A DNA stretch of 38,692 nucleotides from a virus. Taxonomy: Duplodnaviria; Caudoviricetes. Location: positions 1 through 38,692 of IMG/VR virus record IMGVR_UViG_3300020441_000430; one strand, given 5' to 3'. The position numbers were made by a program, and so were the translations under genes. Below the pieces are notes generated by a model. The model made no database searches and was not told the DNA's origin. It saw only the letters and a list, made by a program, of their open reading frames with translations. Each line of letters opens with the position of its first letter. Within the stretch, counting starts at the first letter, position 1. This document shows positions 15,765-37,085 of this stretch, in pieces.

Positions 15765-16231
15765 GCGTATTTGGCGTTGCCTCTAAGTGCAAAGTATAGA
15801 CCACCAACATATAAACTGACATGTAGATAGTCTTTATAGATTACATCCCATAGACTAGCAGGACTCAGAATCCATATAACACCTGTTGCAATACAAGTCA
15901 TAGTGATACCACTAAAACGAGTCAACAAATCTCCTAGTTCTTCTGTAATATTTCTAAATTTAGGTGAATATCTGCCGATTCTTGCAATAAAGAAATGTCT
16001 AGCATGCCATGGTATGAGACCAAAAAGTCCACCTACAATCAAACCTATAGCAGAACCAATCTCACCATATGTGACAAACCACCATACGATATATGGCAAA
16101 CCCCATGCCTCTGCTGTTGCACCTGTGACAGGAAGTTTACTAAGACCTTGTTGCAAGAACATTGCAGATAATGGTATTCTTAAAAAGAATGTGGCAATCG
16201 GTGCCGATATTTTAGGTATTATCTCTCTCAT
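15761..16231 (-). CDS. DoxX-family membrane protein
   Basis: LRIPL...F...G..K and E...AIGLI.G motifs; several TM segments; start moved to ATG 16231. Confidence 0.7.
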   Translation of the reverse strand: MREIIPKISAPIATFFLRIPLSAMFLQQGLSKLPVTGATAEAWGLPYIVWWFVTYGEIGSAIGLIVGGLFGLIPWHARHFFIARIGRYSPKFRNITEELGDLLTRFSGITMTCIATGVIWILSPASLWDVIYKDYLHVSLYVGGLYFALRGNAKYA

Positions 16232-16664
16232 ATGACCAATAATAATGTTCGTTCTCTTCGATATAAGGACCTTTTTCAAATCCCCATTTTGTCATTATAC
16301 CATTTGCAGCTAGATTATCTTTATGTGTGTATGCATGTATTCTATCATGATATTGTGTGACGATAGGCATTATTAAATCCATAACACCTTGATTTTGATA
16401 TGTAAAATGTGTGCATACATCTATTGCTAAACATGATAATTCATCATCAAGGTCATCCACAAGATGAAAATCATTCACACATATAGAACCAATCCAATAA
16501 GCAATAGCAATATCATTTTCATCTACTACTACAAATGAGTCTGTTAAATTTTTACAAATAAACAACCATGTGTCAGCACTAAATCTTTTCTCACTTGAAT
16601 GACTTTCATGTTGAACTTTCCAACATGCCTCCCAATCTTTCTCCTGTATTCGTCTAACTTGCAT
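16212..16664 (-). CDS. GNAT-family acetyltransferase
   Basis: YQNQGV acyl-CoA motif and N.AA......WGF motif; likely start ATG 16664. Confidence 0.7.
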   Translation of the reverse strand: MQVRRIQEKDWEACWKVQHESHSSEKRFSADTWLFICKNLTDSFVVVDENDIAIAYWIGSICVNDFHLVDDLDDELSCLAIDVCTHFTYQNQGVMDLIMPIVTQYHDRIHAYTHKDNLAANGIMTKWGFEKGPYIEENEHYYWSYERDNT

Positions 16665-16839
16665 TTGCCATGATTTCATCTAACTGATCTGGTGTCAAAT
16701 CAGTTTTCAATTCAACAGTAAATGTATCTTCATTTTCATTGTGTGTCACAATAAACGGTATCTCGGTACCTGCCTCTTGTAATATACCGATGTTCTCGTT
16801 GAACTGTCGATAGTCATCTCTACTTAAAGTCGCAATCAT
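16654..16839 (-). CDS. hypothetical protein
   Basis: 61 aa; overlaps both neighbours; AGGAG SD. Confidence 0.55.
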   Translation of the reverse strand: MIATLSRDDYRQFNENIGILQEAGTEIPFIVTHNENEDTFTVELKTDLTPDQLDEIMANAS

Positions 16840-17465
16840 ATTGGTAAAACTCCTCTTTCTTCTACTTCTTTATTCTCAGGAAATAGTGTAGAAGGTTCAT
16901 CTATTTCCCCACTCTCAACTTTCTGATAGTGAACAAAATCTCTCCAGAAATCTTTGATTGATTTATGTATGTAAACTTTTGTTTTGCCAATCCAATTACC
17001 TTTTTTATCTCTGTAAATATATTTGTATTCATAAGTTATAGAACCGTCAGCATTTCTACTATGAATAGATGCAGGTCTCCCTGTATAATAACATCTAGGT
17101 GCTGTGACTTTCTTACTCATTGTTTCGCCTAACAAATTTGTTACCTGTTCACCTTTTAGATCGACTAGAGATTCTTTAAACTCTGACTTTTCAATCAAGT
17201 CTAAGACTTCTTCTGGTTCTACTTGCCATGTCTCTGAACCACTTGTAGGTTGACCAAATTCATTTTCCATTAAGTGTTTAAGTTTATTCTCGCACATTGT
17301 TAAAGAGTGCATAGATTTACTTGTATCTATTCTTAAAAACTCTTTAAGACCACCAGCAGTCGATCTGTGTGTCAACATTCTATCGTCTATGTCTTCAGCT
17401 TTTCCTATTTTGACATGGGGAAGTCCATCTTCATCCCAATTACAAAAACCATATAGACCTATCAT
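16836..17465 (-). CDS. GIY-YIG/T5orf172-like nuclease-domain protein
   Basis: LYGF...VKIG.A....DR...E....H....SETW pattern in N-terminal half. Confidence 0.55.
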   Translation of the reverse strand: MIGLYGFCNWDEDGLPHVKIGKAEDIDDRMLTHRSTAGGLKEFLRIDTSKSMHSLTMCENKLKHLMENEFGQPTSGSETWQVEPEEVLDLIEKSEFKESLVDLKGEQVTNLLGETMSKKVTAPRCYYTGRPASIHSRNADGSITYEYKYIYRDKKGNWIGKTKVYIHKSIKDFWRDFVHYQKVESGEIDEPSTLFPENKEVEERGVLPI

Positions 17466-18739
17466 CGACCAACCTCACCAAGATATTTTGCTTTCGTTTC
17501 TGCCCATGTCATGAAACAAACATCATCATAGAACAATGTCTCTGTAAGGTTTGTTCTATCATTCTTAACTAGATTATTAATTCTCTTTCTTGCATACTTT
17601 TCTTTCCAGAGTTCTGATAGTGCCTCTGTTGATGTGTCAAAAGACTTGACTAAATCTTTTTCTTCTATCTCACCTCTAAGAAACTCTCGTGAGTTATCAT
17701 AAAGTGTAGAATAATATATGCCTCTTTGATGTTCTGACTTAATAATATCTTTTGGTATTTTAAGTTGTGAATAAATGAACTGTCTCATACGATTTCTATG
17801 GTCTCTCTTTAATGTTTGTCCGTTTTCTCTCTTTGCAACATATAACATAAAGTATCTATCATTGTAATGTTTCTCTGCATATTTTAACATTTCTTTCTCT
17901 GTTTCTTTTGTCAACTCATATGATAAAGAACCTTGACTGTAACCCATTTTCTTCCAGTGTTTGAGTCTATCGTATTGTGATAAACCACCTGTTTTAGATT
18001 TACCATACAGTGATGTAGTTGTCACACTAACAAGTTTATCACCGTAGTTTTCTTGCCATTGATTCTGTATATCATCTGATAAACAAAGTAATGCAAGTAA
18101 TTTACCACCTGTGTAATTGAAACCTAGTGGTTGTAATGGCACTATTGTAGAACCAATACAAGAGTTGTTTAGTTTGCCACTATTTGTTTTGTATTCTCTT
18201 TCCCACCCTATAAAATTATCTCTTGGTGTTAGATCAATAAAATCACCTGTGATACAAATTACACCTAGATATTTACCTGAGACTTTATCTCTGACTAAGT
18301 AATGTAGATTACGCCCTATGTTTGAACTATTCTTCATAGTAGAAGTAAATGTTCTTACACAATTCCATTTCTCTGTAAGAGAACCAGCAGATTGTCTGTC
18401 TTTAATTGAATCTGTATAAATTAATTCTGGTTCTAGTTTCTCAAAGTCCATAGGGTCTTCTGGAAACCAAATGTTATTCTTACTCTCATTGATGAGTTTA
18501 ATATGGTCTTCATTGATTAATTGTTTCTCAGCACCAAAAAGTGTGCCCATTTCTTGTGAAGGATATCTTTGTTGTATTTCTAGATACTTTTGATAGAGTG
18601 TATATTCACCAACAGACATCTTAGAAACATATGATAAGTCATCTATAATCTTTTGTCGAAGATCATACTTAGACATAACTTCTTTCTCGACATAGTTTGC
18701 CTGATAGTCATCATATTGTTTCTGAACAAATGGTTCCAT
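17462..18739 (-). CDS. DUF4338/DruA-like protein
   Basis: GR.L.YLV.D..SGKYLGVI, PRD.FIGW, IVP.QPLGFNY.GGKLLAL and TTSLYG...SQY motifs. Confidence 0.7.
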   Translation of the reverse strand: MEPFVQKQYDDYQANYVEKEVMSKYDLRQKIIDDLSYVSKMSVGEYTLYQKYLEIQQRYPSQEMGTLFGAEKQLINEDHIKLINESKNNIWFPEDPMDFEKLEPELIYTDSIKDRQSAGSLTEKWNCVRTFTSTMKNSSNIGRNLHYLVRDKVSGKYLGVICITGDFIDLTPRDNFIGWEREYKTNSGKLNNSCIGSTIVPLQPLGFNYTGGKLLALLCLSDDIQNQWQENYGDKLVSVTTTSLYGKSKTGGLSQYDRLKHWKKMGYSQGSLSYELTKETEKEMLKYAEKHYNDRYFMLYVAKRENGQTLKRDHRNRMRQFIYSQLKIPKDIIKSEHQRGIYYSTLYDNSREFLRGEIEEKDLVKSFDTSTEALSELWKEKYARKRINNLVKNDRTNLTETLFYDDVCFMTWAETKAKYLGEVGR

Positions 18740-22213: not shown

Positions 22214-23011
22214 TTATGTTAAAAAAGAATCGAGACTTGCGTTTCCGAACTTATCTTCTATCTTATTTACATTTCTACTATTAAACTCTTGAAAATCTTT
22301 ATTGTATATAAAAGGTATTTCACTTACTGGTGTCCACTCTTTTTCACCTGGCGCCATAACTTTCCATTCTAAGTTGTCATCTTTTGGATAGTTTATAGTC
22401 CAATCTACTGTTGAGTTAGATAGATACTCTCTATCATCTTTATTGATCGGGTAAATATATTTGTATTGTTTACCTTTGACTCTTTTTAAATTTAAGTCTA
22501 TTCTCTGTTCGTAATTTGGTCTATGGCCATATTTTTTACCATCTGTATTAGGTAAAAGACCTTGCATAGTTCTAGGGTGAACTTTCTCACCATTCTCTGT
22601 CACATATAAATCTGTTTCAGAAAAACCACCATATAAAAAGTTTGCAGATTGATAAACATATCCAACTTTACCTACTATGCCATCTGCCCATGTAAACAGA
22701 TATCTAATTCTTAAATGTTTTCTAATCCATTTTACAACTAGAGATAACATCTGACTCTCTGAATTTTTAGGCATATTATCTGTCATCGCCATCTTACCTA
22801 TCTCAAAGTAATCAGCAGATGTTAGTTCTGGAAATAAAACTTGTATTGTATGTTTTGGTCTGGTGCCCCACCCTAATGATAATACACCTACTAACTCGTC
22901 ATCGACATAACACCCCAACCAATGTTTTGTAAGTTTAGGTATTATTGGTGAGTAATGCCACTTCTGTAAAAATAAAGTTGCAACTCTGTAGTCTACTTCT
23001 TTTATTATCAT
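22214..23011 (-). CDS. Mom-family (GNAT-fold) DNA adenine modification protein
   Basis: WHYS near N-terminus, E..KM......PKNSES..LS, TWAD...G..G.VYQSANF.Y.G motifs; overlaps the gp43 stop. Confidence 0.7.
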   Translation of the reverse strand: MIIKEVDYRVATLFLQKWHYSPIIPKLTKHWLGCYVDDELVGVLSLGWGTRPKHTIQVLFPELTSADYFEIGKMAMTDNMPKNSESQMLSLVVKWIRKHLRIRYLFTWADGIVGKVGYVYQSANFLYGGFSETDLYVTENGEKVHPRTMQGLLPNTDGKKYGHRPNYEQRIDLNLKRVKGKQYKYIYPINKDDREYLSNSTVDWTINYPKDDNLEWKVMAPGEKEWTPVSEIPFIYNKDFQEFNSRNVNKIEDKFGNASLDSFLT

Positions 23012-25518
23012 GAGAAGAAACTGTCAAGTGATGCAACAGGTTCTACATTCCAATTGATTAACTGAACAATATTTTTGAGTGGTTCAACAAATGATTTATC
23101 GAACTGCATATCATAATCTACAAATCTATGTAAGTCAAATTCTTTAGGCAGAACAGATGTAAATGAGATCACATTCTCATTGATAGGATTAGGTGTCGTA
23201 AGATAAGTAAAGTGTATCTTCTCACCGTTTTTGATTGTTTCATATCTCATGTCTAAACTCTTTTCTCTGAGATGATGATTAAATAGTAATGAACCTCTTA
23301 CATGAATTGGTGTGCCTTTAGAATAAATATTTGTTGTATCTGCATACTGAACTAGACCTTTACACCCTCTAGGAAAACTTGCATCTTCAACTGGCAGATT
23401 ACGAAACTCTTTTCGTGCAGTCTCTACGAACTGCCAAAGTTCTTGTTCATTACCTGTCATTACAACTTTAAGTGCCTCTTCTAGTTTCTTTCTGACCCAT
23501 AACGGCGTTGATGACTTTGCAGTTTCTATACCCATCATTTTGAGTTTAGGTTTTGTAAGTCTAACACCCTCATTGTCATGCACATTTAGAATGTATCGTT
23601 TCTTGGCAGTCCAAATACCTCTGTCTGCAATAACTTCACGACCCATTTCCATTTTCTGTTCGAATGCATTTGTATAATTTGCAAGATCAATAAAACCTTT
23701 TTCTAACACATCTTCTATCTGAACTTCTGCTTTAGATAAGAAGTCAATCACTTTATCTTTTGGTGCATCAGGCAATACTTGATTAACAAGTTTATCTACT
23801 GTAATATAGATTGAGTCTGTATCGATTGCAATTACATAATCTTCATTATCAGTTTTAAGAACTTTGTTTAGATATTCATTACATATCTTTTCTGCCCAAC
23901 GAATCGCAAGTTGACCTGATAATGTAATCGCTTCTGCCATATCAATAGAAAAGAATGCAAAGTATTGATTCGCCATTGCACCATAAGCTGAGTTCAATGC
24001 AATCTTACGAACTTGTTGATTGTTGTATGCCCTCTTAATTAGAGTATCGAGTTGTTTTCTTCTAACAGTATCAGTAGTTCTTTCTTTTTCTTTCTGATAC
24101 TCAATCATCTTACCTTTCCATTTCTTTCTCTCTTCATAAAAAGTTTCCATGAGTTCAGGAAACATACCTTGTTTATCACGAGAGAAAAGAACACCATTAG
24201 GTGCAACGGCAGTGTTTGTTTGTTTACAATATGATAAGTCACATTCTTTGTTTAACATTCTATCTACAGTGACATCTTGACGATTACCTTTGAGCATTTT
24301 CTCAGGCGAGATATTGTATTGCATTATCAAATGTGGATATAGTGAGTTTAAATCAAAAGACATCACCCAATTATGACCACCAACAATAGGTTCTTTTACA
24401 TAGGCACCTACAATAGGTTTATTTTTGTCGTTGCCTGTTTTAAGTCTTTGTGGTGGTGTTTGTATATTCTGGTCTTTTAGAAAGTTATAGATGATTGTTT
24501 CCCAATATTTCACCATGCCGAATGTATCAATGTAATTACACTTTGCACTATAAGCCATTGTGATAATTAGATCAATGAAACCTAATTTCTCTTCTAGTTC
24601 TTCTACAAGAACAACATCTCGAACATTATATTCTAGAAATTTACCATAATCTTGCCGATACAGTGTATGTAAAGAACCGAAATCACTGTAGTCTAATTTA
24701 CCTTTACCTAGTTCAAACTGTGCAATATAATCTAACTTATATGATTCTTGATTATGAAATGTATTCTTACGATATAGTTCTAGATAGTCAACAATATTTA
24801 CACCACTGAGTTCGAAGATTTGATTCTTCTGATAACCCATTGATGTATATTCTCTTGTGTGTGATTGACCCCATGGCGATAACTTCTTATGTTCGTCTTC
24901 ACCTAGAATCTTGTCAATACGATTACAAAGATATGTGATATCAAAACTGTTTACATTCCAACCTGTTATGATATCAAACCATTCTGTTCGCCAATACTTA
25001 ATAAATTTTTGTAGTAAGTCTGTTTCGTTTTTACAATTGTGATAGACTAGATTTTGATTATGTTCCCACGGACCAATGCCAAAGACTTGACATTCTTTAC
25101 CAAAAGGTTTGATTGATATTGCATTAATCTTTTCAGCCGCCAAGATTGGTTCTGGAAAACCATCTTCACACTCACACTCAATATCTAAAGTTGCAGTCTT
25201 GATTAATGATGTATCAAACTTGATGTCACCTTGAAACTTATCTGCAAGATAAGTATAAACATATCTGTCATAACCATGAACTTCGAATCCTTCTACGCCT
25301 GAGTATTTCTCTCTGAATTTACGAGCGCCACCCATAGAGTTAAGATTGACAACTTCTAGATTACGGCCGTCTAATGATTTATAAGGTGACTCAGATTTTT
25401 TAGATAGAATGTAATGATTAGGTCTATAGTTTACTGCAACCTTTTGTTTGGTTTTGCCTTTGTAACCTATGACTAAAATTTTGTCACGACTACGACATAC
25501 ATTCGTATAAAAATCCAT
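23008..25518 (-). CDS. 43: T4 gp43-like family B DNA polymerase
   Basis: DIEC exonuclease motif, SFDLNSLYPH, K...NSAYG, IDTDS, KKRY. Confidence 0.97.
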   Translation of the reverse strand: MDFYTNVCRSRDKILVIGYKGKTKQKVAVNYRPNHYILSKKSESPYKSLDGRNLEVVNLNSMGGARKFREKYSGVEGFEVHGYDRYVYTYLADKFQGDIKFDTSLIKTATLDIECECEDGFPEPILAAEKINAISIKPFGKECQVFGIGPWEHNQNLVYHNCKNETDLLQKFIKYWRTEWFDIITGWNVNSFDITYLCNRIDKILGEDEHKKLSPWGQSHTREYTSMGYQKNQIFELSGVNIVDYLELYRKNTFHNQESYKLDYIAQFELGKGKLDYSDFGSLHTLYRQDYGKFLEYNVRDVVLVEELEEKLGFIDLIITMAYSAKCNYIDTFGMVKYWETIIYNFLKDQNIQTPPQRLKTGNDKNKPIVGAYVKEPIVGGHNWVMSFDLNSLYPHLIMQYNISPEKMLKGNRQDVTVDRMLNKECDLSYCKQTNTAVAPNGVLFSRDKQGMFPELMETFYEERKKWKGKMIEYQKEKERTTDTVRRKQLDTLIKRAYNNQQVRKIALNSAYGAMANQYFAFFSIDMAEAITLSGQLAIRWAEKICNEYLNKVLKTDNEDYVIAIDTDSIYITVDKLVNQVLPDAPKDKVIDFLSKAEVQIEDVLEKGFIDLANYTNAFEQKMEMGREVIADRGIWTAKKRYILNVHDNEGVRLTKPKLKMMGIETAKSSTPLWVRKKLEEALKVVMTGNEQELWQFVETARKEFRNLPVEDASFPRGCKGLVQYADTTNIYSKGTPIHVRGSLLFNHHLREKSLDMRYETIKNGEKIHFTYLTTPNPINENVISFTSVLPKEFDLHRFVDYDMQFDKSFVEPLKNIVQLINWNVEPVASLDSFFS

Positions 25519-25539
25519 AATATAATTGTATCAGAAAAA

Positions 25540-25782
25540 CTATTCGTTTAATAGTGTTTTTTTGCCTTCAAATTCAAAATGTTTCATTGCAACTGATTTA
25601 ATTTCACACCAATGACCTATCTTGTTTAATTCATCTTCGACTGTCTTCATTAAGTCTGGATGATCTGCCACACCAGTAGCATTCTTTCCTAGGTTTTCAA
25701 TGTTTACTTTACCAGCTTCAATCTCTGCATCTGCTCTTTTTACAGTTGCAGTTAAAATTTTGTTTAACATATCTACTGCCAT
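25540..25782 (-). CDS. conserved hypothetical protein
   Basis: 80 aa; GV..HPD motif; GGAGG SD. Confidence 0.65.
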   Translation of the reverse strand: MAVDMLNKILTATVKRADAEIEAGKVNIENLGKNATGVADHPDLMKTVEDELNKIGHWCEIKSVAMKHFEFEGKKTLLNE

Positions 25783-25790
25783 GATACCTC

Positions 25791-26243
25791 CTATGTATCT
25801 AATACCATTTCTTGTAGTTCTTTACTTCTTCTGCCTACTTGTCCATACCATTTAGAATCTTCCATCTGTCTAGACATTTCATCCCAATCTTCTACTGAAC
25901 ATGCATATAACATATTTCTAAATTTACCTAAACGATTTGCACCTAAGTTAAAACACATATTAACTAATACATGTTGTATACTTTCAGGCAATTCTTCAAA
26001 GATAATATTATTCTTATCACAAACATGTATTGTTTCGTCTACATGTTTATCAAAGTCTGCTTCGTAGTATCGATCTACAGTTTCTTGCGATATAGGTGTT
26101 CCTTCTGGTTCACCATACTCAGCATCGTCTTCTCTAATAAGATGACCTACACCAAGTGTTAAGTAACCAAGTGAGTCTTTATAAATTTCTAAGACTTCTC
26201 CTTCGTGTCGTTTAATTTCCTGTTTTAGAATCTCTTTGTTCAT
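25791..26243 (-). CDS. GH24 T4-lysozyme-like muramidase
   Basis: HEG....Y.DSLGY.T.G.GHL catalytic motif; NM.FNLG; S.WY.QV..R. Confidence 0.85.
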   Translation of the reverse strand: MNKEILKQEIKRHEGEVLEIYKDSLGYLTLGVGHLIREDDAEYGEPEGTPISQETVDRYYEADFDKHVDETIHVCDKNNIIFEELPESIQHVLVNMCFNLGANRLGKFRNMLYACSVEDWDEMSRQMEDSKWYGQVGRRSKELQEMVLDT

Positions 26244-26535
26244 TCTCTTCCCTCTTCATTTGCTCTTGCATGAGTTCAACTAATATATCACCCATGAGTT
26301 TATTAAGTTCGTTATTATTTAGTAATTCTTCAATTACTTCTTCTGTTGCCTCAACACCGTTCGGCACTCTTCTTATAGTTCGTTTAAAGTTGAGTTGAGG
26401 TTCACCATTTACGAACTGCACATCACCATATTGATAGACTAATCCTTCCCATTCACCAGATACTAATTCTATACCTGCATTTTCTTCGTAAGGATTTTCT
26501 ACTACACGATAAACTTTTTTGAATAACATTGTCAT
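26212..26535 (-). CDS. conserved T4-like hypothetical protein
   Basis: 107 aa; I....G.W.G.VYQYG.V and MGDIL motifs, typical of the gene upstream of gp43. Confidence 0.65.
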   Translation of the reverse strand: MTMLFKKVYRVVENPYEENAGIELVSGEWEGLVYQYGDVQFVNGEPQLNFKRTIRRVPNGVEATEEVIEELLNNNELNKLMGDILVELMQEQMKREENEQRDSKTGN

Positions 26536-27647
26536 CTTATTATATCTATGTCTGGATTTTTATTCCAAACTTCTAACTCCGTTCTCAATCTATTTTCTGA
26601 TTTAAGTTTACTAAATCTTTTACCTGCTAACTTTTTCCACCAAGTGACTATCTCTTCTAATTCAAATCTATCATAGTTAGGTCTTTTAGTTAGTGTATCT
26701 GTTTCTAAGTTAAGATAGTCTGCAACATTATCATATCCGTATGTAGATATAAATGTTCTTTTCTTTTCTGTAAGGCCTTTTGCATCTACGAGTGCTGTCT
26801 TAAATGTTTCTAAATCTTTTCCTTCTAATGAGTTTCTAATAATAGAAATCATTTTTGTTTGTGTTTTTAATTTTCTACTACTTGCATCTTCATCTACAAG
26901 TGGTCCTTTGTTTCTATCTTCAAACCACTTTCTAAGATCGTGGTATTTTTCATCGTTGATTGCAGGCACAAAATCTGATAATGTTAGACCTGCATATCTT
27001 AGAAAAGGTTTCATGCCATCATATTGTGATACTTGTTTTGTAGAACCATATAATGATGTTGTTTCAAACATACAGAAATCTGTATTATATTTTTCACTTA
27101 GAGTTCTTCTTGCAAGATGTGAACAACAAATACCTGCAAGTAATTTACCACCAAGATAATTAAAACCAAAAGGTTGTGTTGGCACTATTATAAAACCCAT
27201 GATAGTGCTATCATTAAATCTCTTCATGACTTCCATGTTTGTTGTCTGTAATGGTCTGCCTAAGAAATCATTTCTAGGTTTAGAGTTAATAGTTGGTGAA
27301 CCGAATCTAATAAAACCTACAATCTTGTTTGTGTTTACCTCGTAGACAACCCACTTTAAACTTTTACCTGGCACTGACTTTTCTATTGCATGTGATGTGA
27401 CTATCTCTAGATAGTTATCATACATATCATTTGATACTTCTCTACAAACAAATTGCATGTCTTCTGGATGCATTGTAAAGTCTTGAAACATCTCGTCTTC
27501 TGGTCCATAACCAAACAAAGGTGTTGGTATATCTTCCATTCTTTCAAGTTTTACTTTACGAAGATAATCATCAATGCGACCAAAGTTCTTATAATAATCT
27601 ATAAAAATCTGTGATGCAAATTGGGCGTCTTGTTTGTTAAGTATCAT
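26532..27647 (-). CDS. second DUF4338/DruA-like protein
   Basis: PG..L...V.E..T.KIVGFIR.GSP, IVPTQPFGFNYLGGKLLA and ETTSLYG...SQYDG; paralogous to 17462-18739; start moved to ATG 27647. Confidence 0.7.
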   Translation of the reverse strand: MILNKQDAQFASQIFIDYYKNFGRIDDYLRKVKLERMEDIPTPLFGYGPEDEMFQDFTMHPEDMQFVCREVSNDMYDNYLEIVTSHAIEKSVPGKSLKWVVYEVNTNKIVGFIRFGSPTINSKPRNDFLGRPLQTTNMEVMKRFNDSTIMGFIIVPTQPFGFNYLGGKLLAGICCSHLARRTLSEKYNTDFCMFETTSLYGSTKQVSQYDGMKPFLRYAGLTLSDFVPAINDEKYHDLRKWFEDRNKGPLVDEDASSRKLKTQTKMISIIRNSLEGKDLETFKTALVDAKGLTEKKRTFISTYGYDNVADYLNLETDTLTKRPNYDRFELEEIVTWWKKLAGKRFSKLKSENRLRTELEVWNKNPDIDIIR

Positions 27648-27692
27648 AAAAAAACCTGATACCATTTTACAACAGTATCAGGTCCTTGTCTA
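27648..27692 (-). promoter_or_regulatory. promoter overlapped by an inverted repeat / terminator-like hairpin
   Basis: TAGACA-17 nt-TAAAAT; arms ACCTGATAC (27654-27662) and GTATCAGGT (27675-27683) followed by a U-run on the minus strand. Confidence 0.55.
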
Positions 27693-27698
27693 GTTGTT

Positions 27699-28208
27699 TT
27701 ATTCAGAATCAGTTAATGCACTTAAAACATTATCTGGTGCAGAGGCCTCATATGGGTCTGTATCTGCCAAGTCTCTCATATCATCTTCTGCAAAGATATG
27801 TTCAACTGTATTATTGTTGATCACCATTGCATATCTCCATGATCTTTTACCAAAACCTAGATTACCTTTTTCAACTAATGCACCAATTTTTGATGTCCAC
27901 TCAAAGTTTCCATCTGGTAATGCTTTTACATTCTTGATGCCTTGATTCTCGAACCATGCATTCATTACAAATGAATCGTTTACTGATAAACAATAAACCT
28001 CATCTATGCCTGCATCTTGAAAATCATTATAGAGTTCTTCATAACCTGGTAATTGTTGAGACGAACAAGTCGGAGTAAATGCACCTGGAAGTGCAAATAT
28101 TAATACTCTCTTTTCTGCAAATGATTGAACAGTATTTAAACTCTGCCAATCATCATCTTGTCTAAAATTAAACCAAATACTAGGTATTGAATCGCCAACA
28201 TTTATCAT
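27699..28208 (-). CDS. peroxiredoxin (Prx5-like)
   Basis: LPGAFTPTCS, SVND.FVM.AW, RSWRYAM motifs. Confidence 0.92.
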   Translation of the reverse strand: MINVGDSIPSIWFNFRQDDDWQSLNTVQSFAEKRVLIFALPGAFTPTCSSQQLPGYEELYNDFQDAGIDEVYCLSVNDSFVMNAWFENQGIKNVKALPDGNFEWTSKIGALVEKGNLGFGKRSWRYAMVINNNTVEHIFAEDDMRDLADTDPYEASAPDNVLSALTDSE

Positions 28209-28227
28209 AATAAATCCCTTTCAAAAT

Positions 28228-28300
28228 TGGAGCGAGATAGAAGAGTTGCACTTCTATCTCCTAACTGGTAGTTAGGTATTTTGCTTTAAACTAATCTCGC
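28228..28300 (-). tRNA. atypical tRNA-Gly, anticodon ACC, CCA encoded
   Basis: GCGAGAT/ATCTCGC acceptor stem plus U73-CCA; anticodon arm CCTAA-CTACCAG-TTAGG; T-arm AGAAG-TGCAACT-CTTCT; D-loop lacks GG. Confidence 0.8.
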
Positions 28301-28307
28301 ACTTTCC

Positions 28308-28346
28308 ATATTACTAAAGAACTCTATAAATTGCAAGTGGTTTTTT
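28308..28346 (-). promoter_or_regulatory. promoter for the tRNA (AAAAAACCAC class)
   Basis: AAAAAACCAC-TTGCAA-17 nt-TAATAT, ending 7 nt before tRNA G1. Confidence 0.65.
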
Positions 28347-28774: not shown

Positions 28775-29057
28775 ATTAAGCAAGTTGTAGTTCTAATCCC
28801 CTTATGGGCAATTAGGCGTATGAATCTCTTTAAACCCGAGCTTCGAGAAGCTCTTTTTAAGATTCAAAGAGTTCATACTAAAACTTTTATTCTTCCTCTG
28901 TGTCGATTCTAGAACTCGTTTCTGGTCGAATAAAAGGTTGAGTTGATATAGTCGGTTTCTTAATCTTACGATTTAGTCACCCTTATATCGCCTCAGTTAG
29001 TTATCAAAAACACCTGCGTTTTGATTATTCATCGCCGACAAGCAAATTTAATAACTA
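28775..29057 (-). ncRNA. candidate structured RNA or long 5' leader of hsp20
   Basis: ORF-free; a series of hairpins downstream of the promoter at 29063-29102. Confidence 0.5.
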
Positions 29058-29062
29058 GGATC

Positions 29063-29102
29063 ATTATATAGTGTTTTTACCCACTTTTTCAAGTGGTTTT
29101 TT
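29063..29102 (-). promoter_or_regulatory. sigma70-type promoter (AAAAAACCAC class)
   Basis: AAAAAACCAC-TTGAAA-18 nt-TATAAT. Confidence 0.65.
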
Positions 29103-29115
29103 CAATTTTTTTTAA

Positions 29116-31026: not shown

Positions 31027-31588
31027 AATTATTTAATATCACAAGTGACATAACTGTATTAATACTTCTTATTGATTTTGCAGTCAATCTATCATTATTA
31101 TAATCAATCTGAAAAGCAGGAGTTAATACTGCAACTTTTGTATATAACATACTTCTTCTAGACGGTGTATCACCTAAAAAAGGATTTATTTCTTTAACAC
31201 AATTATATTTAAGTCCACGAGTAGTCGTATAAACATCTGCAAGTTGTAAACCAACAAAGACTGCCCAATCAGCAGGTGTAGGTGGGTCAACTAAATCAAA
31301 TCGGTGTATATATTCGAACCTTTTCTGACTTGCCTTTGACAAGTATCCTATCGACTTCTGTAAATGCTCTTTCTGGACAGAGTTGATAAGTTCGTTCCGA
31401 TAACAACAAGTCCACCCCCTCATAATTGCGTGTTTGTCCTTCGAGTCTAGCACCCAGGTTGACGGCATCTCCGATGACGGAATAGTCAAATCTAAGTTCT
31501 GAACCCATGTTTCCGACAATGCATTCGCCTGAACTGATACCGATGCCCACATTAATAGGAGGCAGGTTAAGAGGTTTAAGTTCTTCAT
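30983..31588 (-). CDS. hypothetical secreted/membrane protein; start uncertain, overlaps cyclase gene
   Basis: LQLADVYTT..GL....E.NP motif (DUF5658-like) in the non-overlapping part. Confidence 0.5.
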   Translation of the reverse strand: MKNLNLLTCLLLMWASVSVQANALSETWVQNLDLTIPSSEMPSTWVLDSKDKHAIMRGWTCCYRNELINSVQKEHLQKSIGYLSKASQKRFEYIHRFDLVDPPTPADWAVFVGLQLADVYTTTRGLKYNCVKEINPFLGDTPSRRSMLYTKVAVLTPAFQIDYNNDRLTAKSIRSINTVMSLVILNNYEVLQKAQRHCEKR

Positions 31589-33137
31589 TTAATTTCTCCG
31601 TTGCAACTAATACTTCTAGTGCAGATTTTACGGCAAGTTCGGCATGGTCTTCACAATCCAAGGGAGCATTCCAAAAACTCATGATACAATCGCCCATATA
31701 CTTGTCAATAGTTCCTTTATTATTTAGTATGATTTTAGTTTGCACATCCAAGAACTTGTTTATGAGTTCTACTAATCCTTCTGGATCATCTTTGTTCTTA
31801 TATGCCTCGCTTATAGGAGTAAATCCGCAAATGTCCATGAACATGAATGTCATTTCTCTTCTCTCACCACCTAGTTTAAGTTTACTAGGGTCTTTTTGTA
31901 GTTCTTCAACCATCTCAGGAGATAAATATTTTTTGAATTGCTTTTTAATTTGTTCTTTGAGTTGATAAGTGATATAGTATTTGTTGAAAGAAGCATGTCC
32001 AAAAACCACTACGGAGGCTAACGATGAGTAGAAAATATCGAAAAGAACGAGTGATGAAGACCACAAATAGAAACCCCCACCCACCTGAAACGCAACGATA
32101 CCTAGACTCGCTATCGCCGAAACAGTTGTGGGAAGTTTGTAAACCGATACCCATATTCCTAAAAGAACTATCAAAAGAAGAGCAACTTCAAGAAATTCAA
32201 AATAGTAGGATTGCTGTATTTGAACTCCTGTCAAAAAGGTTTGGATTTGGTTTGCTTGCACTTCATGGGGATACATTGCACCCATTGGGGTTGAAACTGG
32301 ATTACTCAATCCCTCAGCAGTCAGACCATAAATAAGAATCTTATTTTCAATATCTGATTCTTTTAAATCTGCAAAAGATATAGAATCAAATTGATTCCAA
32401 TATGATATCATAACATCGGCAGTAGATGTTGTCTCTATGGGTTTACTACGACCCATTCTAATCCATTCTATGCCTGCATCTTCTGTGACTCTTGTTTGAT
32501 AATTTCTGTGATCACCCAATGCCCTTAATGTTTCTAATGCTAAACTAGGATAAACTACATCATTCGCCATGACAATAGCAGGAGCGGAACGGATAGTCTG
32601 GTCGAAGTTAGGTGTATTTGGCACTGATGGTGTTGCAATTGTGACACCCATTCCGTATGCAGAATCTTGTAAGAACTGCGTAGGACTTATAAGTCCGTCA
32701 AACTGCCATACATGTTCTTTGATGGCACCACCTCCAAAAACACTCGTGTTTACATAAGGTGCGTTACCTTCACCCGTTTGCGTGGTCGGTGCGGAAGATA
32801 AAACTGTTAATCTATTTTGTAATCCATTTGCAAAGTATTCGTCTTGACCAAATCTATCTTCTTCTGCAAATAGTATATTGAATACATGAGTATTTGAGTG
32901 ATGTGTTTCCCATAATGTATCTGCATATACATCTCTAGGGAATGGATATTGACCATACTTCTCTATAGATTTCTCATCTATATTAACTAGAAGTATATCT
33001 TCTACTTGTTCTTTTTCTTTTGTTGAATGTAGATAATCAAAGTAAGACCATTTGATATTATCTACTATATACGGTGACCAAATCTTTAGCCCTAACAGTA
33101 TCAGCACTGATACTGCGACTGTTTTCCATGAATACAT
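31296..33137 (-). CDS. CHASE2-domain membrane-bound class III adenylate cyclase
   Basis: IDEKS....GQYPFPR (CHASE2), three TM helices, FMDICGF, DKYMGD and GDAVNLGARLE catalytic motifs. Confidence 0.92.
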   Translation of the reverse strand: MYSWKTVAVSVLILLGLKIWSPYIVDNIKWSYFDYLHSTKEKEQVEDILLVNIDEKSIEKYGQYPFPRDVYADTLWETHHSNTHVFNILFAEEDRFGQDEYFANGLQNRLTVLSSAPTTQTGEGNAPYVNTSVFGGGAIKEHVWQFDGLISPTQFLQDSAYGMGVTIATPSVPNTPNFDQTIRSAPAIVMANDVVYPSLALETLRALGDHRNYQTRVTEDAGIEWIRMGRSKPIETTSTADVMISYWNQFDSISFADLKESDIENKILIYGLTAEGLSNPVSTPMGAMYPHEVQANQIQTFLTGVQIQQSYYFEFLEVALLLIVLLGIWVSVYKLPTTVSAIASLGIVAFQVGGGFYLWSSSLVLFDIFYSSLASVVVFGHASFNKYYITYQLKEQIKKQFKKYLSPEMVEELQKDPSKLKLGGERREMTFMFMDICGFTPISEAYKNKDDPEGLVELINKFLDVQTKIILNNKGTIDKYMGDCIMSFWNAPLDCEDHAELAVKSALEVLVATEKLNEELKPLNLPPINVGIGISSGECIVGNMGSELRFDYSVIGDAVNLGARLEGQTRNYEGVDLLLSERTYQLCPERAFTEVDRILVKGKSEKVRIYTPI

Positions 33138-33793
33138 TAATTACCTTGTGTCACATTGACTGTGCAACCACCAACTGTATAACAACTTTGAGTTAGTGTG
33201 TAAGTCTGATTTGTCCCGCCTTGCTGAAGTAAATTTAAAATTGTATGTTCTGACCCTGTTATTGTGATTTGTGCATTATGAGATGCATCGCCTTTCTGCA
33301 TCATTGTAGATTCTGAATCATCTGTATTACCATACCAATATATGTGTGCGTAATGACTGCCTGAACCCTCTTGATGCATATCGTGTTCTACGCCATCAAC
33401 ATGTATATCTATGTAGTGTGTATGCGTTCCGTTTTGATATACATCGACTGTATTAGTATCGCCCCATATATGACGACCATATGTTGCACCATTTAACTGT
33501 TGTATGTTTTCGGTATTATCAACACCATCTACATCACCACCCCAACTCTTACCAGAACCCCAATAAGGAACCCATGAAATAGTATTACCATTTCCACTTT
33601 GTGATAAGTTGAATGTGTTGCCTGCGTGTGCAAAAGAAAAGTCTATGAAATTGCCATATCCTATTTGTTCTATGTTTAAATTGAGATCATCACCACTGCC
33701 AACTTGTTCTACATGAACATGATTGTCATCAGTAGGACCAGCAAATACTGATACTGATAATAAACTAATTAGACTGATTAATATAAATTTCAA
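33137..33793 (-). CDS. secreted curlin-like repeat protein (His-rich)
   Basis: Signal peptide; repeated Q.G..N / I.Q.G units. Confidence 0.7.
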   Translation of the reverse strand: MKFILISLISLLSVSVFAGPTDDNHVHVEQVGSGDDLNLNIEQIGYGNFIDFSFAHAGNTFNLSQSGNGNTISWVPYWGSGKSWGGDVDGVDNTENIQQLNGATYGRHIWGDTNTVDVYQNGTHTHYIDIHVDGVEHDMHQEGSGSHYAHIYWYGNTDDSESTMMQKGDASHNAQITITGSEHTILNLLQQGGTNQTYTLTQSCYTVGGCTVNVTQGN

Positions 33794-34916
33794 TTCCTTC
33801 TCCTCTTCCGAAAGTTATTATGCCTGAGTATCCTTCTACATCTGTTTCTAATGTTCCTGAATTACCAGCGGCTATTATTATATTTATGACTCCGTTTACA
33901 TTACGGAAGAAAACTAAGTCACCATCTTGTTCAAAAACATTGTATTGTGAATCTTTATTGAAACCAACTGTTGCACCTTGTAGTGTAAAAGTAGCGGTGC
34001 CTGTTTGTGCTTGTGTATCTCCTAATGAGACTGTAGTTTTTTCTAGTTCTTCTATGACATCTAGTAAGTCTGTGAGATAGTCAACATCTAAGAAGTCTAT
34101 ATCTAATTCTGAAAACTCCAGATCACCTTTAGTATTTTCAAGTGCATCTTGTTCTAATTCATTAAACTCTAAAAAGTCTACATCTAATATGCCTTGATCT
34201 TGGTCATTTTCATCTTGATAATTTTCTTCTATTTGATTTCTTATTTCTGACGGTGGATTTACAATAAACATATTATCAATTAGATTCGGTGTGATACCTT
34301 GAATGATTACTGATTGTGTAGGTGCTGAATCATATGATGATACTACTGTAGCCGCATATGCCTCTGTTAATACAACTTCGCCACCATCGTTGTATACAAC
34401 TATTTCGCCTGATGATGCACCTGTCTCTTCATCAGGAAGTAAAACAACCATTGTCCTTCCGAGTTCATCGATGGTTGTAGTAAAATCTGTCCCTCTCATT
34501 GTGATGTTTGCAGTTGGTGTTGAAACATCTACATTTTGTTTTTTAATTCTATTACCAGCACCTGAGGCAAAACGAGCAGTGCCTCTGACCATGCTGATTG
34601 CCATTTTAGATTTACTTGGGTCTGGGTCGTAATATGCCTCGTCAATGTAGACAAGACTATTCTCTGTTAATGAAAGTTTCTCTTCGTCTAAAAACTGTAT
34701 TAACATTCTGCCATTAGCAGTTTCGGCTTCATCGTATATGTTTACATCTGTTCCGACATCTGATTGAAGTCGATTCGATTCTCGCACAAGTGATGTGACA
34801 CCTGTAGATTCTATAACACCACCGATGGGTTCGCCATAAACGAACCCACTGATGATTAAAAGACTAGCTATCGTTAGCTGCGTCTTTCTGATTGATTTGA
34901 ATAACACTGTTATCAC
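33765..34916 (-). CDS. FecR-domain protein
   Basis: Signal-like N-terminus; T..GR..I.F.D...L.L.ENS, G..RF.SG, TPTA.I..RGTDF motifs; acidic C-terminal region. Confidence 0.85.
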   Translation of the reverse strand: MITVLFKSIRKTQLTIASLLIISGFVYGEPIGGVIESTGVTSLVRESNRLQSDVGTDVNIYDEAETANGRMLIQFLDEEKLSLTENSLVYIDEAYYDPDPSKSKMAISMVRGTARFASGAGNRIKKQNVDVSTPTANITMRGTDFTTTIDELGRTMVVLLPDEETGASSGEIVVYNDGGEVVLTEAYAATVVSSYDSAPTQSVIIQGITPNLIDNMFIVNPPSEIRNQIEENYQDENDQDQGILDVDFLEFNELEQDALENTKGDLEFSELDIDFLDVDYLTDLLDVIEELEKTTVSLGDTQAQTGTATFTLQGATVGFNKDSQYNVFEQDGDLVFFRNVNGVINIIIAAGNSGTLETDVEGYSGIITFGRGEGIEIYINQSN

Positions 34917-35601
34917 TTGTTATATCTAGTGTGATGTGTGCATCAGGTGAACTACAGGCGTTAGACGCTCCGCTTGCACATGTGCCAGATATCTGATTGA
35001 TATCTACATCAGCACTGTCTCCAGTTAATTCAAAATTTAGCTCTTGTTCGCCATCATTTTGCAAAGTGTTAATGTTGTTTGAGTCACCTGTAATGTCAAA
35101 GTTCCAAACTAAGTCATCAGATTCCCAATCAACATCAAATACATTATTACTTCCAACTAAGATTAAATCGGCATTCAATCTCTCTGCACTGTAGACATAC
35201 CCTTGATCTAAATCAAAAGTATTAGAGTCACCAGTGATAGTAAATTGAATTGATGAATCGTCAGCAGAACCTTGGTAACCTATGTTCCAATCTATGCTGT
35301 TCGAATCACCTGTCAATATTAAATCGTAATCAGAAGAATCTGCGATAACTGGACCGAATAATATGTTTTGGTTACCAATCATGTCTAGATTAATATCTAA
35401 AGACTGACCAGTAATACTCATTGCTGAACCAGAACCACTTGAAAAGTCGTCTCCTCCAACTTTGTTACCAAAACCGATTTGATCAATATATAACTTCAAA
35501 GTGTCACCAGTTTGTGTTATTATAACCTCGTTATCATCAGTTGCTTGTGCGAAAACGAATGATGTCGACAAAAGTAATACTAAACTAAGTATTTTATTCA
35601 T
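34864..35601 (-). CDS. secreted curlin-like repeat protein
   Basis: Signal peptide; DNE..I.Q.GD.L...IDQ.G.GN and repeated ..GDSN.. beta-solenoid units. Confidence 0.72.
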   Translation of the reverse strand: MNKILSLVLLLSTSFVFAQATDDNEVIITQTGDTLKLYIDQIGFGNKVGGDDFSSGSGSAMSITGQSLDINLDMIGNQNILFGPVIADSSDYDLILTGDSNSIDWNIGYQGSADDSSIQFTITGDSNTFDLDQGYVYSAERLNADLILVGSNNVFDVDWESDDLVWNFDITGDSNNINTLQNDGEQELNFELTGDSADVDINQISGTCASGASNACSSPDAHITLDITSDNSVIQINQKDAANDS

Positions 35602-35605
35602 TTTC

Positions 35606-36619
35606 TTATCCCCTTATATTTTCCAAAGGTTCAGGTATCTCAATATCAATGTCATCATCATTCGATTCGTCAATCTCATGTAATTCGTTGGTGCCATCGC
35701 TATTATGTGGATGCCTGTGTCCTTCGTCAATAACCCAATAGCCTCTATCATGACCTTGGTAAATTAATTCCAACACGGCAGCTTCAATAGCCACTCGTGT
35801 TGCGTAAGTCACTGACTCATTATTTCCCACTCCGTCCTCGAATTCGACTAACTGTGTTCCTTCTTCTATGAATCGGAATACATCGCCTCCTTCACCGACT
35901 GAAAGGATAGTCTTTCTAGTCTGGACATTTAATAAAACTTCGCCTGTTAGAACTGATACAGCTCTCATACTTACAGTGACGGCATCTTTACGATACTGTC
36001 TACTTACTCCAATCCCTAATGTTCTGGCGCCTCGACCACCAGTATAAAGATTGGAATCATAACCAACAATACCACCCTCTATTATAATACCTGCAAATAG
36101 GAGTGGATTTAATTCTTGATACTTGTCTTGTCCTTCTTTTTTTGCAAAGTCTTGCCTTGCACTTCTAATAATTTGTCTCTCTCTAACTAAGTGATCTATG
36201 CCATTTCTTTCTACAACTCTAAACCATTTATTACCACCAGCAGTTTTCAATGCATCAATCACCATAGGTGTGCCACCTTGTGTGACTGCTGTAGAGAATG
36301 ATGCAATGTTTGGTAATTCTTTTCTCTGACCTGTTAAGTCTTGAAACTTATATACTGCCACTACAGGCATCTCTTTTGCAGGTGGTAAATCTAACAATTC
36401 TAAAAATGAAGGAAGTCTAATAACTTCTGCCTCGTCTACACAAATGTATGGCATTGCTCTTTCAAAAGTTCTGCCAAGTGCCTTTGCGTAATTCACTAAG
36501 TCATGGTTATACTCTTCTCCCCATGTTCTAGGATTACAATCTTGTGGGTCACTAGAAAACTTGGGGACTGATGCACAACCAGATAGTAGAATTGTTAGTG
36601 CTAGTAAATACTTAACCAT
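35606..36619 (-). CDS. csgG: curli secretion channel CsgG-like lipoprotein
   Basis: Lipobox LLSGC; VAVY.F.D.TGQRK, FSTAVTQG, WF.VVER.G...L..ERQIIR, EGGIVGYD; start moved to ATG 36619. Confidence 0.9.
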   Translation of the reverse strand: MVKYLLALTILLSGCASVPKFSSDPQDCNPRTWGEEYNHDLVNYAKALGRTFERAMPYICVDEAEVIRLPSFLELLDLPPAKEMPVVAVYKFQDLTGQRKELPNIASFSTAVTQGGTPMVIDALKTAGGNKWFRVVERNGIDHLVRERQIIRSARQDFAKKEGQDKYQELNPLLFAGIIIEGGIVGYDSNLYTGGRGARTLGIGVSRQYRKDAVTVSMRAVSVLTGEVLLNVQTRKTILSVGEGGDVFRFIEEGTQLVEFEDGVGNNESVTYATRVAIEAAVLELIYQGHDRGYWVIDEGHRHPHNSDGTNELHEIDESNDDDIDIEIPEPLENIRG

Positions 36620-37085
36620 CAGGATCTTGTCCGAAGTTTCCAGTTCCAATTGGTATTTCAATGACTGTTTCAGTTCCGTCAGAACCAGTAATTGTCATTC
36701 TAATATACTCTGAACCATCTTCATTTGTAATCACTTCATATGTGACTACATTTCCTTCTAGTGTGAAAGAACCAAATCTAACAGAACCATCATTTGAGAA
36801 CATAGATTCAACCAATTGTTTTGCCATTTGGGCATAGATTCTTGATTCTAAGTTCCTGATAAATTTTGCTAAGGTTGAATTATCTGCCTCTCTTTCAGCT
36901 GCCTTTCTAGCAGCTTCAAGGGCGTCCTCGATTTCTTTTTTTCTTGAATGTTCTTGGTTTTCTATGGTTAGATAGTGAGCGCCTTGGCCTTTTCCTGAAA
37001 AGCTAGGGTTCTTAAACTCATGAACAATAGGTGTCGCAAACAATGTTGCGCTTAAAAATAAACTACTTAATATTATTATCTTCAC
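36612..37085 (-). CDS. csgF: curli assembly protein CsgF-like
   Basis: Signal peptide then F.NPSFSG motif; F..NLESRIYAQ....L; adjacent to csgG. Confidence 0.85.
   Translation of the reverse strand: MKIIILSSLFLSATLFATPIVHEFKNPSFSGKGQGAHYLTIENQEHSRKKEIEDALEAARKAAEREADNSTLAKFIRNLESRIYAQMAKQLVESMFSNDGSVRFGSFTLEGNVVTYEVITNEDGSEYIRMTITGSDGTETVIEIPIGTGNFGQDPDG

Follow-up and report, generated by a model that had tools for sequence, protein, structure and literature searches.

Why would a phage keep a lone glycine tRNA whose translation features are degraded, and which of its enzymes would use it? The question is raised by a genome fragment of 38.7 kb from a marine T4-like phage (IMG/VR record IMGVR_UViG_3300020441_000430, positions 1 to 38,692, hereafter the window), whose annotated genes lie on the minus strand and include, by Pfam and PHROG matches, regA, hsp20, peroxiredoxin, polymerase, uvsX and helicase genes. 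The tRNA shares this strand with a Mom-family gene, to which an original prediction made from the letters alone had tied it, and with two genes of the DruA/DUF4338 family, DruA1 (26532..27665) and DruA2 (17462..18739), that the prediction had not singled out. The explanation we favor, and consider probable, is that the rebuilt tRNA-Gly is charged, escapes elongation factor Tu (EF-Tu) and acts as a private glycine donor for GNAT-fold enzymes that modify phage DNA, with a DruA-like protein as the main client and Mom as a later second user.

The tRNA and its neighbor DruA1

The tRNA-Gly(ACC) lies at 28228..28300 on the minus strand, 5.2 kb upstream of mom on the same strand, and is the sole tRNA that ARAGORN and Rfam (53.1 bits, E 8.6e-9) detected in the window. 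It retains an encoded CCA and, with G1-C72, C2-G71, G3-C70, U73, C35 and C36, satisfies the glycine identity set of G1-C72, C2-G71, U73, C35 and C36 (PMC9976931). The elbow motifs are lost: the D-loop has 6 nt and no GG (G18G19), the T-loop reads UGCAACU above a T-stem of A49-U65, G50-C64 and A51-U63, and C32 pairs with G38. The T-stem pairs A49-U65 and A51-U63 weaken EF-Tu binding (PMC3239215, PMC7826273) and, together with the loss of G18G19, mark the staphylococcal non-proteinogenic tRNA-Gly species (PMC4052509, PMC7826273). We predicted the free energy of EF-Tu binding (dG) with the additive table of PMC3239215. The window tRNA, at a predicted -9.5 kcal/mol, falls beside the staphylococcal forms (-9.6/-9.7, measured) and above bacterial tRNA-Gly (-10.8). 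A lone tRNA about 5 kb upstream of mom, with intact glycine identity, degraded translation features and both non-proteinogenic marks, was found as originally predicted. The staphylococcal forms presumably share the UGC T-loop as well. The resemblance to staphylococcal NP1-NP3, the partners of FmhB, FemA and FemB (PMC7826273, PMC4052509, PMC3239215), thus covers retained glycine identity, the T-stem, the D-loop and the predicted binding energy. Unlike them, the window tRNA is phage-encoded, has the anticodon ACC and is linked to Mom and DruA GNATs rather than to Fem proteins, and its presumed acceptor is DNA instead of lipid II.

Across 19 such RNAs, the anticodon and T stems were paired in 98-99% of cells and 112 cells were changed on both sides, compared to 35 in shuffles, which argues that the structure is not due to chance, the D-arm and acceptor columns of this alignment being partly misaligned. 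A candidate sigma-70-type promoter (TTGCAA-17-TAATAT; 28308..28336, minus strand) ends 7 nt before base 1 of the tRNA, and its -10 region also precedes the orthologues in L217, L223, L228 and L229; a promoter scan, whose hits were no more frequent than in shuffles, did not include this candidate, which lies below the scanner cut-off. Near-identical sequence to the window is present in marine metatranscriptome assemblies, where contigs span the tRNA and the peroxiredoxin gene and one ends exactly at base 1 of the tRNA; this is a weak hint of a transcript, as contigs of this kind neither define the ends of a transcript nor rule out a DNA origin.

A search pattern with a free T-loop recovered 16 orthologous tRNA-Gly(ACC) loci, several of them copies of one species. 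In all 16, DruA1 was the neighbor, within 1.3 kb, and mom was absent from the fetched DNA, which reached past the polymerase end in 6 of them, so the proposed dedication of the tRNA to mom did not find support. The T-loops of these orthologues vary widely, while the acceptor arm, anticodon and C32-G38 pair are kept; in one (L228:200-268), missed by ARAGORN, the T-loop has collapsed with the acceptor and anticodon arms intact. This drift beside a conserved acceptor arm and anticodon is consistent with selection on charging and not on decoding. Of 80 relatives collected around the polymerase gene, 34 include hsp20, and tRNA-Gly was found in 11 of the 13 hsp20-including loci with DruA1 (6 rebuilt and 5 near-canonical, with near-canonical tRNA-Gly(ACC) beside DruA1 in L253 and L284) versus 0/21 without DruA1. 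Behind the polymerase, mom occurred only in the window's species and L008 of these 80, and polymerase trees (quick and FastTree) showed a tRNA-bearing clade around the window that lacks mom, the window's species excepted. The tRNA and two DruA-like genes, without Mom, are present on two large contigs from relatives (140 and 114 kb); no rebuilt tRNA was detected in 5 further relative contigs, where more rewired forms could be missed. We suggest that DruA1, as the conserved neighbor, is likely the main glycyl-tRNA user and that DruA2 is possibly a further client, and mom looks like a later addition in the window's species. The window is informative in uniting Mom and the tRNA with two DruA-like genes, a combination that its relatives break up.

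Between the tRNA and DruA1 lies the peroxiredoxin gene (27699..28208, minus strand), a slot marker that is probably a bystander. The slot between this gene and one for a 107-aa protein (window 26212-28208) is a swappable cassette in relatives, holding DruA1 with a cytidylyltransferase and further genes, or a C5-methylase with TET/JBP and a kinase, or an N6/N4-methylase-like gene. Since the last two sets occupy it in relatives lacking DruA1, we read it as a DNA-modification slot. In the window's species DruA1 is alone there, with no tblastn hit in the fragment for the cytidylyltransferase or glycosyltransferase-like partners.

Mom and DruA-like genes beside glycine tRNAs

An exact tRNA-Gly pattern with a UGCAA T-loop returned 67 loci from IMG/VR, and a control pattern with UUCGA returned 129, a partial sample of about 6300, with flanks fetched for 80. 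To find Mom and DruA-like genes, we built local profiles from window homologues and refined them iteratively over all the fetched loci, which comprised 1.14 Mb of canonical control and 0.96 Mb of UGC-type DNA. One or the other gene lay within 10 kb of 38/67 UGC-type loci (15 with Mom, all within 1.5 kb, and 25 with a DruA-like gene) versus 5/129 canonical loci (Mom 0, DruA-like 5); after clustering at 85% identity, 11/28 UGC types, the window's included, were linked, versus 5/72 (p 2.5e-4). The co-occurrence that had been foreseen therefore stands for the enzymes taken together and was not seen for mom in the orthologous loci. Neither enzyme lies near the remaining 29/67 UGC-type loci, many of which are arrays of 10-34 tRNAs; several large phage arrays contain other tRNA species with the same UGC/no-GG change. 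We accordingly rejected the UGC T-loop with missing GG as a stand-alone marker.

There are two classes of UGC-type tRNA-Gly, because the unlinked ones keep strong T-stems and the linked ones have weak T-stems with positions 32 and 38 paired in 19/19 types, by four kinds of pair; the window's tRNA belongs to the enzyme-linked class. Array-type UGC tRNAs, unlike the window's, are mostly open at 32-38, and C-G, G-C or A-U at this position occurs in 0/130 canonical tRNA-Gly. Mean predicted dG was -9.33 kcal/mol for Mom/DruA-linked types (n=19), -10.26 for unlinked UGC types (n=18; difference p 3.5e-4) and -10.51 for canonical phage tRNA-Gly (n=127 of 130).

Where linked, the tRNA can be intimately placed. 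In L009, L010, L021, L026 and L049, all of the window's Mom clade, a rebuilt tRNA-Gly comes immediately after mom, and in other loci it lies in frame and in the same phase within four mom open reading frames (ORFs), one polymerase-Mom fusion and one polymerase-DruA fusion. The mom ORFs carry it in phase 0 at the 5' end (L017, twice, and L030) or the 3' end (L045), and the family B polymerase fusions to Mom (L059:9278-12478(-), 1066 aa) and to a DruA-like domain (L067:7683-10982(+), 1099 aa), on records both rated complete with terminal repeats, carry it in the linker. Because the tRNA is embedded in both kinds of fusion, Mom and DruA domains fill the same architecture. A precedent is the tRNA-Gly-like "pseudo-tRNA" inside a mom homologue in Dehalococcoides ssrA islands, for which no function is proposed in the accessible part of the source (PMC3146451); the structures tied to mom in L017, L030, L045 and L059 resemble it, and the window tRNA differs in being free-standing and tracking a DruA-like gene. 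Separately, canonical tRNA-Gly lies directly behind the DruA1 or mom stop in L295, L154, L012 and L013; these loci may reflect an earlier stage, with a normal tRNA-Gly supplementing the donor pool.

Cultured phages offer further cases. HTVC008M and Mosig, which have a DruA-like gene and no Mom, encode a rebuilt tRNA-Gly(ACC), and Psychrobacter phage Y8A, which has Mom, encodes two glycine-tRNA-like RNAs in tandem (L320/L321, 7786-7926) that are heavily rewired and have a reduced D arm; ARAGORN misses the Mosig and Y8A forms, as it does that of L228. An RNA model built for such searches (R1) rests on a structure that is misaligned in part and gives scores to canonical tRNA-Gly too, and every hit used was checked by eye. 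Most of 15 Mom-clade contigs gave no clear match to a rebuilt tRNA (4 gave a hit, one of them a tRNA-Trp), and more heavily rewired forms may have escaped detection. In five Kyanoviridae that have neither enzyme, no rebuilt tRNA was found, and 2/5 had a canonical tRNA-Gly.

The Mom-family gene (22214..23011, minus strand, 265 aa) has its ATG overlapping the stop of the T4-like family B DNA polymerase gene (23008..25518, minus strand) by 4 nt (23008-23011), and its assignment in the original prediction was upheld by Pfam PF25680 (E 4.7e-48; 164 bits against a cut-off of 27), PHROG 1384 (Mom-like, E 2.6e-37) and phmmer against Mu Mom (8BV8; E 4.6e-17). The structural comparison then proposed agrees, as the model of the protein (pLDDT, the predicted local distance difference test, 87) has 8BV8 as its top Foldseek match (E 8e-15; next GNAT 3.6e-5). 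Residue equivalents read off the phmmer alignment, with an offset of +9 to Mu numbering, show H58, Y59, S124, D149 and Y159 of Mu Mom all kept (H19, Y20, S86, D110 and Y120), R111 and R151 replaced by K73 and I112, and W48 and W181 replaced by R and K. In Mu Mom, R111K strongly reduces activity and R151A abolishes it (PMC13219725), so activity of the window protein is plausible without being assured; K73 is common to 19/19 aligned members of its clade, which makes it a clade variant rather than a sign of decay. Mu Mom moves glycine from any Gly-tRNA-Gly, including all three host Escherichia coli isoacceptors, to N6 of adenine, and the accessible text on it holds no phage tRNA or EF-Tu competition (PMC13219725). 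The same donor is presumed for window Mom, which differs from that of Mu in its T4-like phage, its coupling to the polymerase, the two arginine replacements, and the company of a private tRNA and two DruA-like GNATs.

DruA1 (377 aa; Pfam E 1.9e-9) and DruA2 (425 aa; E 1.4e-21), both on the minus strand, match PF14236 at 37.6 and 77.3 bits, above the cut-off of 27. The DruA1 model (pLDDT 84, 40 sequences) has a GNAT fold, in which Mu Mom 8BV8 ranks second among structural matches (Z 8.4, root-mean-square deviation 3.6, 163 of 202 aligned). DUF4338 has already been termed a GNAT domain (PMC10853773), and phage DruA-like proteins are mentioned in the Phold preprint; no substrate for DruA/DUF4338 is given in the accessible parts of either. 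No other Druantia gene (DruB-DruE) was among the Pfam/PHROG hits of the 55 ORFs in the fragment, and unlike in Druantia, the window's DruA-like genes stand among replication genes. DruA2 directly follows the replicative helicase and is also present after it in the tRNA-bearing relatives L217, L223 and L228, and in other phages Mom or DruA-like genes follow the polymerase or are fused to it. Among cultured phages, the nearest homologues of the window's DruA-like and Mom genes come from phages of Synechococcus, Pelagibacter and Methylophilales. Downstream of DruA2 we also observed a small additional GNAT (window 16212-16679; weak Acetyltransf_3 match), a distant homologue of which lies between peroxiredoxin and DruA1 in L229.

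Proposed glycine donation and competing explanations

Under the explanation we favor, the candidate promoter directly ahead of the tRNA would drive a transcript running into peroxiredoxin, and host glycyl-tRNA synthetase would charge the tRNA with glycine. The weak T-stem pairs are predicted to keep the charged tRNA off EF-Tu, an evasion that would have to operate in the phage's own host. DruA1, perhaps DruA2, and Mom would then take glycine from it and place it on newly replicated phage DNA, with the DruA-like proteins presumed to resemble Mom in both donor and acceptor, and the glycine-modified DNA may blunt restriction enzymes.

Several observations weigh against this explanation. Seen from the enzymes (80 loci per family, flanks of up to 6 kb fetched), a glycine tRNA was near only 7/80 Mom-clade and 13/80 DruA1 loci (difference p 0.23). 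Where present it was nearly always adjacent, within 300 nt of the mom match in 6/7 and within 1.5 kb of DruA1 in 13/13, and its being optional from the enzyme side is in line with the use of host tRNA-Gly by Mu Mom. Five DruA1-bearing cyanophages have a canonical tRNA-Gly(UCC) only, the slot of L232 and L233 contains DruA1 without a tRNA, and 7 near-complete genomes with a UGC/no-GG tRNA carry neither enzyme (50 of the 67 loci examined). The polymerase tree yields 3 independent pairs, 2 concordant and 1 uninformative (p 0.5), too few to give the test much phylogenetic power, and genes that share a cassette would be inherited together in any case. As for the enzymes, the DruA1 match to 8BV8 is tied with other, unrelated GNATs, Foldseek of the DruA1 model against the PDB gave weak GNAT hits only, with no match at E<=0.001, and hhalign of DruA1 against Mom profiles was not significant (probability 1.3%); window Mom lacks both arginines whose mutation cripples Mu Mom (PMC13219725).

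That the tRNA serves the window's mom alone, making N6-carbamoylmethyl-adenine, with the DruA-like genes unrelated, is very improbable in our judgment. Mom is the sole enzyme here from a family known to use Gly-tRNA-Gly (PMC13219725), and in its clade the tRNA directly behind mom in five loci, with nearly all clade glycine tRNAs within 300 nt, would be in keeping with such a pairing; the orthologous tRNAs nevertheless persist without mom, including where the DNA reaches past the polymerase, and the polymerase tree confines mom to the window's species within the tRNA-bearing clade. The scarcity of glycine tRNAs near Mom-clade genes points the same way, as does the cultured phage Melnitz, whose Mom is 57% identical to the window's and in which no glycine tRNA was found. 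An Edwardsiella phage with Mom showed no rebuilt tRNA, and heavily rewired forms could be missed in either phage. Nor is it at all probable that this is an unusual yet working translation tRNA in an incidental position. It would read the favored codon GGU, which accounts for 301/477 glycine codons in 22 window genes and keeps a translation role possible, and UGC/no-GG variants do occur in several tRNA species of large phage arrays, as do near-canonical tRNA-Gly(ACC) beside DruA1 in two relatives. The array-type tRNAs differ from the window's in T-stem and 32-38 pair, however, the wobble base of the tRNA in one slot can be either A or U (L020 versus L029), and the T-loop drifts and collapses among orthologues to the point that some forms escape ARAGORN.

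A non-DNA role is unlikely, somewhat less so than these two: the DruA-like GNAT might instead use a sugar, a polyol or a protein as glycine acceptor, or else the RNA might be a decoy that soaks up host toxins targeting tRNA-Gly. In relatives, a cytidylyltransferase gene and one more gene, mostly unassigned or glycosyltransferase-like, come after DruA1, the DruA1 fold matches many non-DNA GNATs equally well, and the determinants of the TacT toxin, U73 and G71 (PMC9976931), are intact in the window tRNA. The window's DruA1, by contrast, has no such partners in this fragment by tblastn, and linkage to a transferase would be unnecessary for a decoy. DruA-like genes follow or fuse to DNA polymerase and follow helicase, can have the tRNA embedded in them just as Mom genes do, and are exchanged for DNA methylase/TET cassettes in relatives, all of which argue for donation to DNA.

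Both halves of the proposed donation to DNA have precedents, in Mom chemistry and in non-proteinogenic tRNA-Gly, and their functional pairing in a phage is mostly new. Our literature search, from which the main supplement of PMC13219725 was outside, found no paper proposing a phage-encoded EF-Tu-evading glycine donor or Gly-tRNA use by DUF4338, and the accessible part of PMC7824862 has nothing on either; the view that the pairing was undescribed thus mostly stands for function, with the tRNA-Gly-like locus in a mom homologue already in print (PMC3146451). More tentatively, at a little short of an even chance, DruA/DUF4338 may be a second widespread Gly-tRNA-dependent DNA-modifying family, for which, as for Mom, phages repeatedly evolved private, ribosome-proof glycine tRNAs, even in frame in fusion linkers. 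If true, this would give a chemistry for Druantia's DruA and a testable donor substrate for the abundant DUF4338/DruA family, which accounts for 6770 homologous clusters of the 7997 candidates scored and has no substrate in the papers found, and it predicts an undescribed glycine-derived base in the SAR11 phages HTVC008M and Mosig. It would also bear on the question of how a DNA modifier that depends on tRNA can win charged tRNA from EF-Tu, with phages reusing a trick of staphylococcal cell-wall synthesis, and the cultured HTVC008M, Mosig and Y8A make the prediction directly testable.

Other features of the window

Palindromes are strongly avoided across the window (1-38692): ACGT, CCGG and CGCG are absent, observed/expected ratios are 0.04 for GTAC, 0.34 for GGCC and 0.37 for GATC, and AATT, TTAA, TGCA and AGCT are not avoided. 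This avoidance suggests host restriction pressure not fully covered by any modification.

At 31296-37085 we detected genes for a CHASE2-adenylate cyclase, a FecR-like protein, a curlin-repeat-like protein, CsgG and CsgF, here in a phage. Upstream of hsp20, an AT-rich, gene-free stretch (28790-29110) contains two hairpins without an Rfam match, and pieces of it turn up in metatranscriptome contigs.

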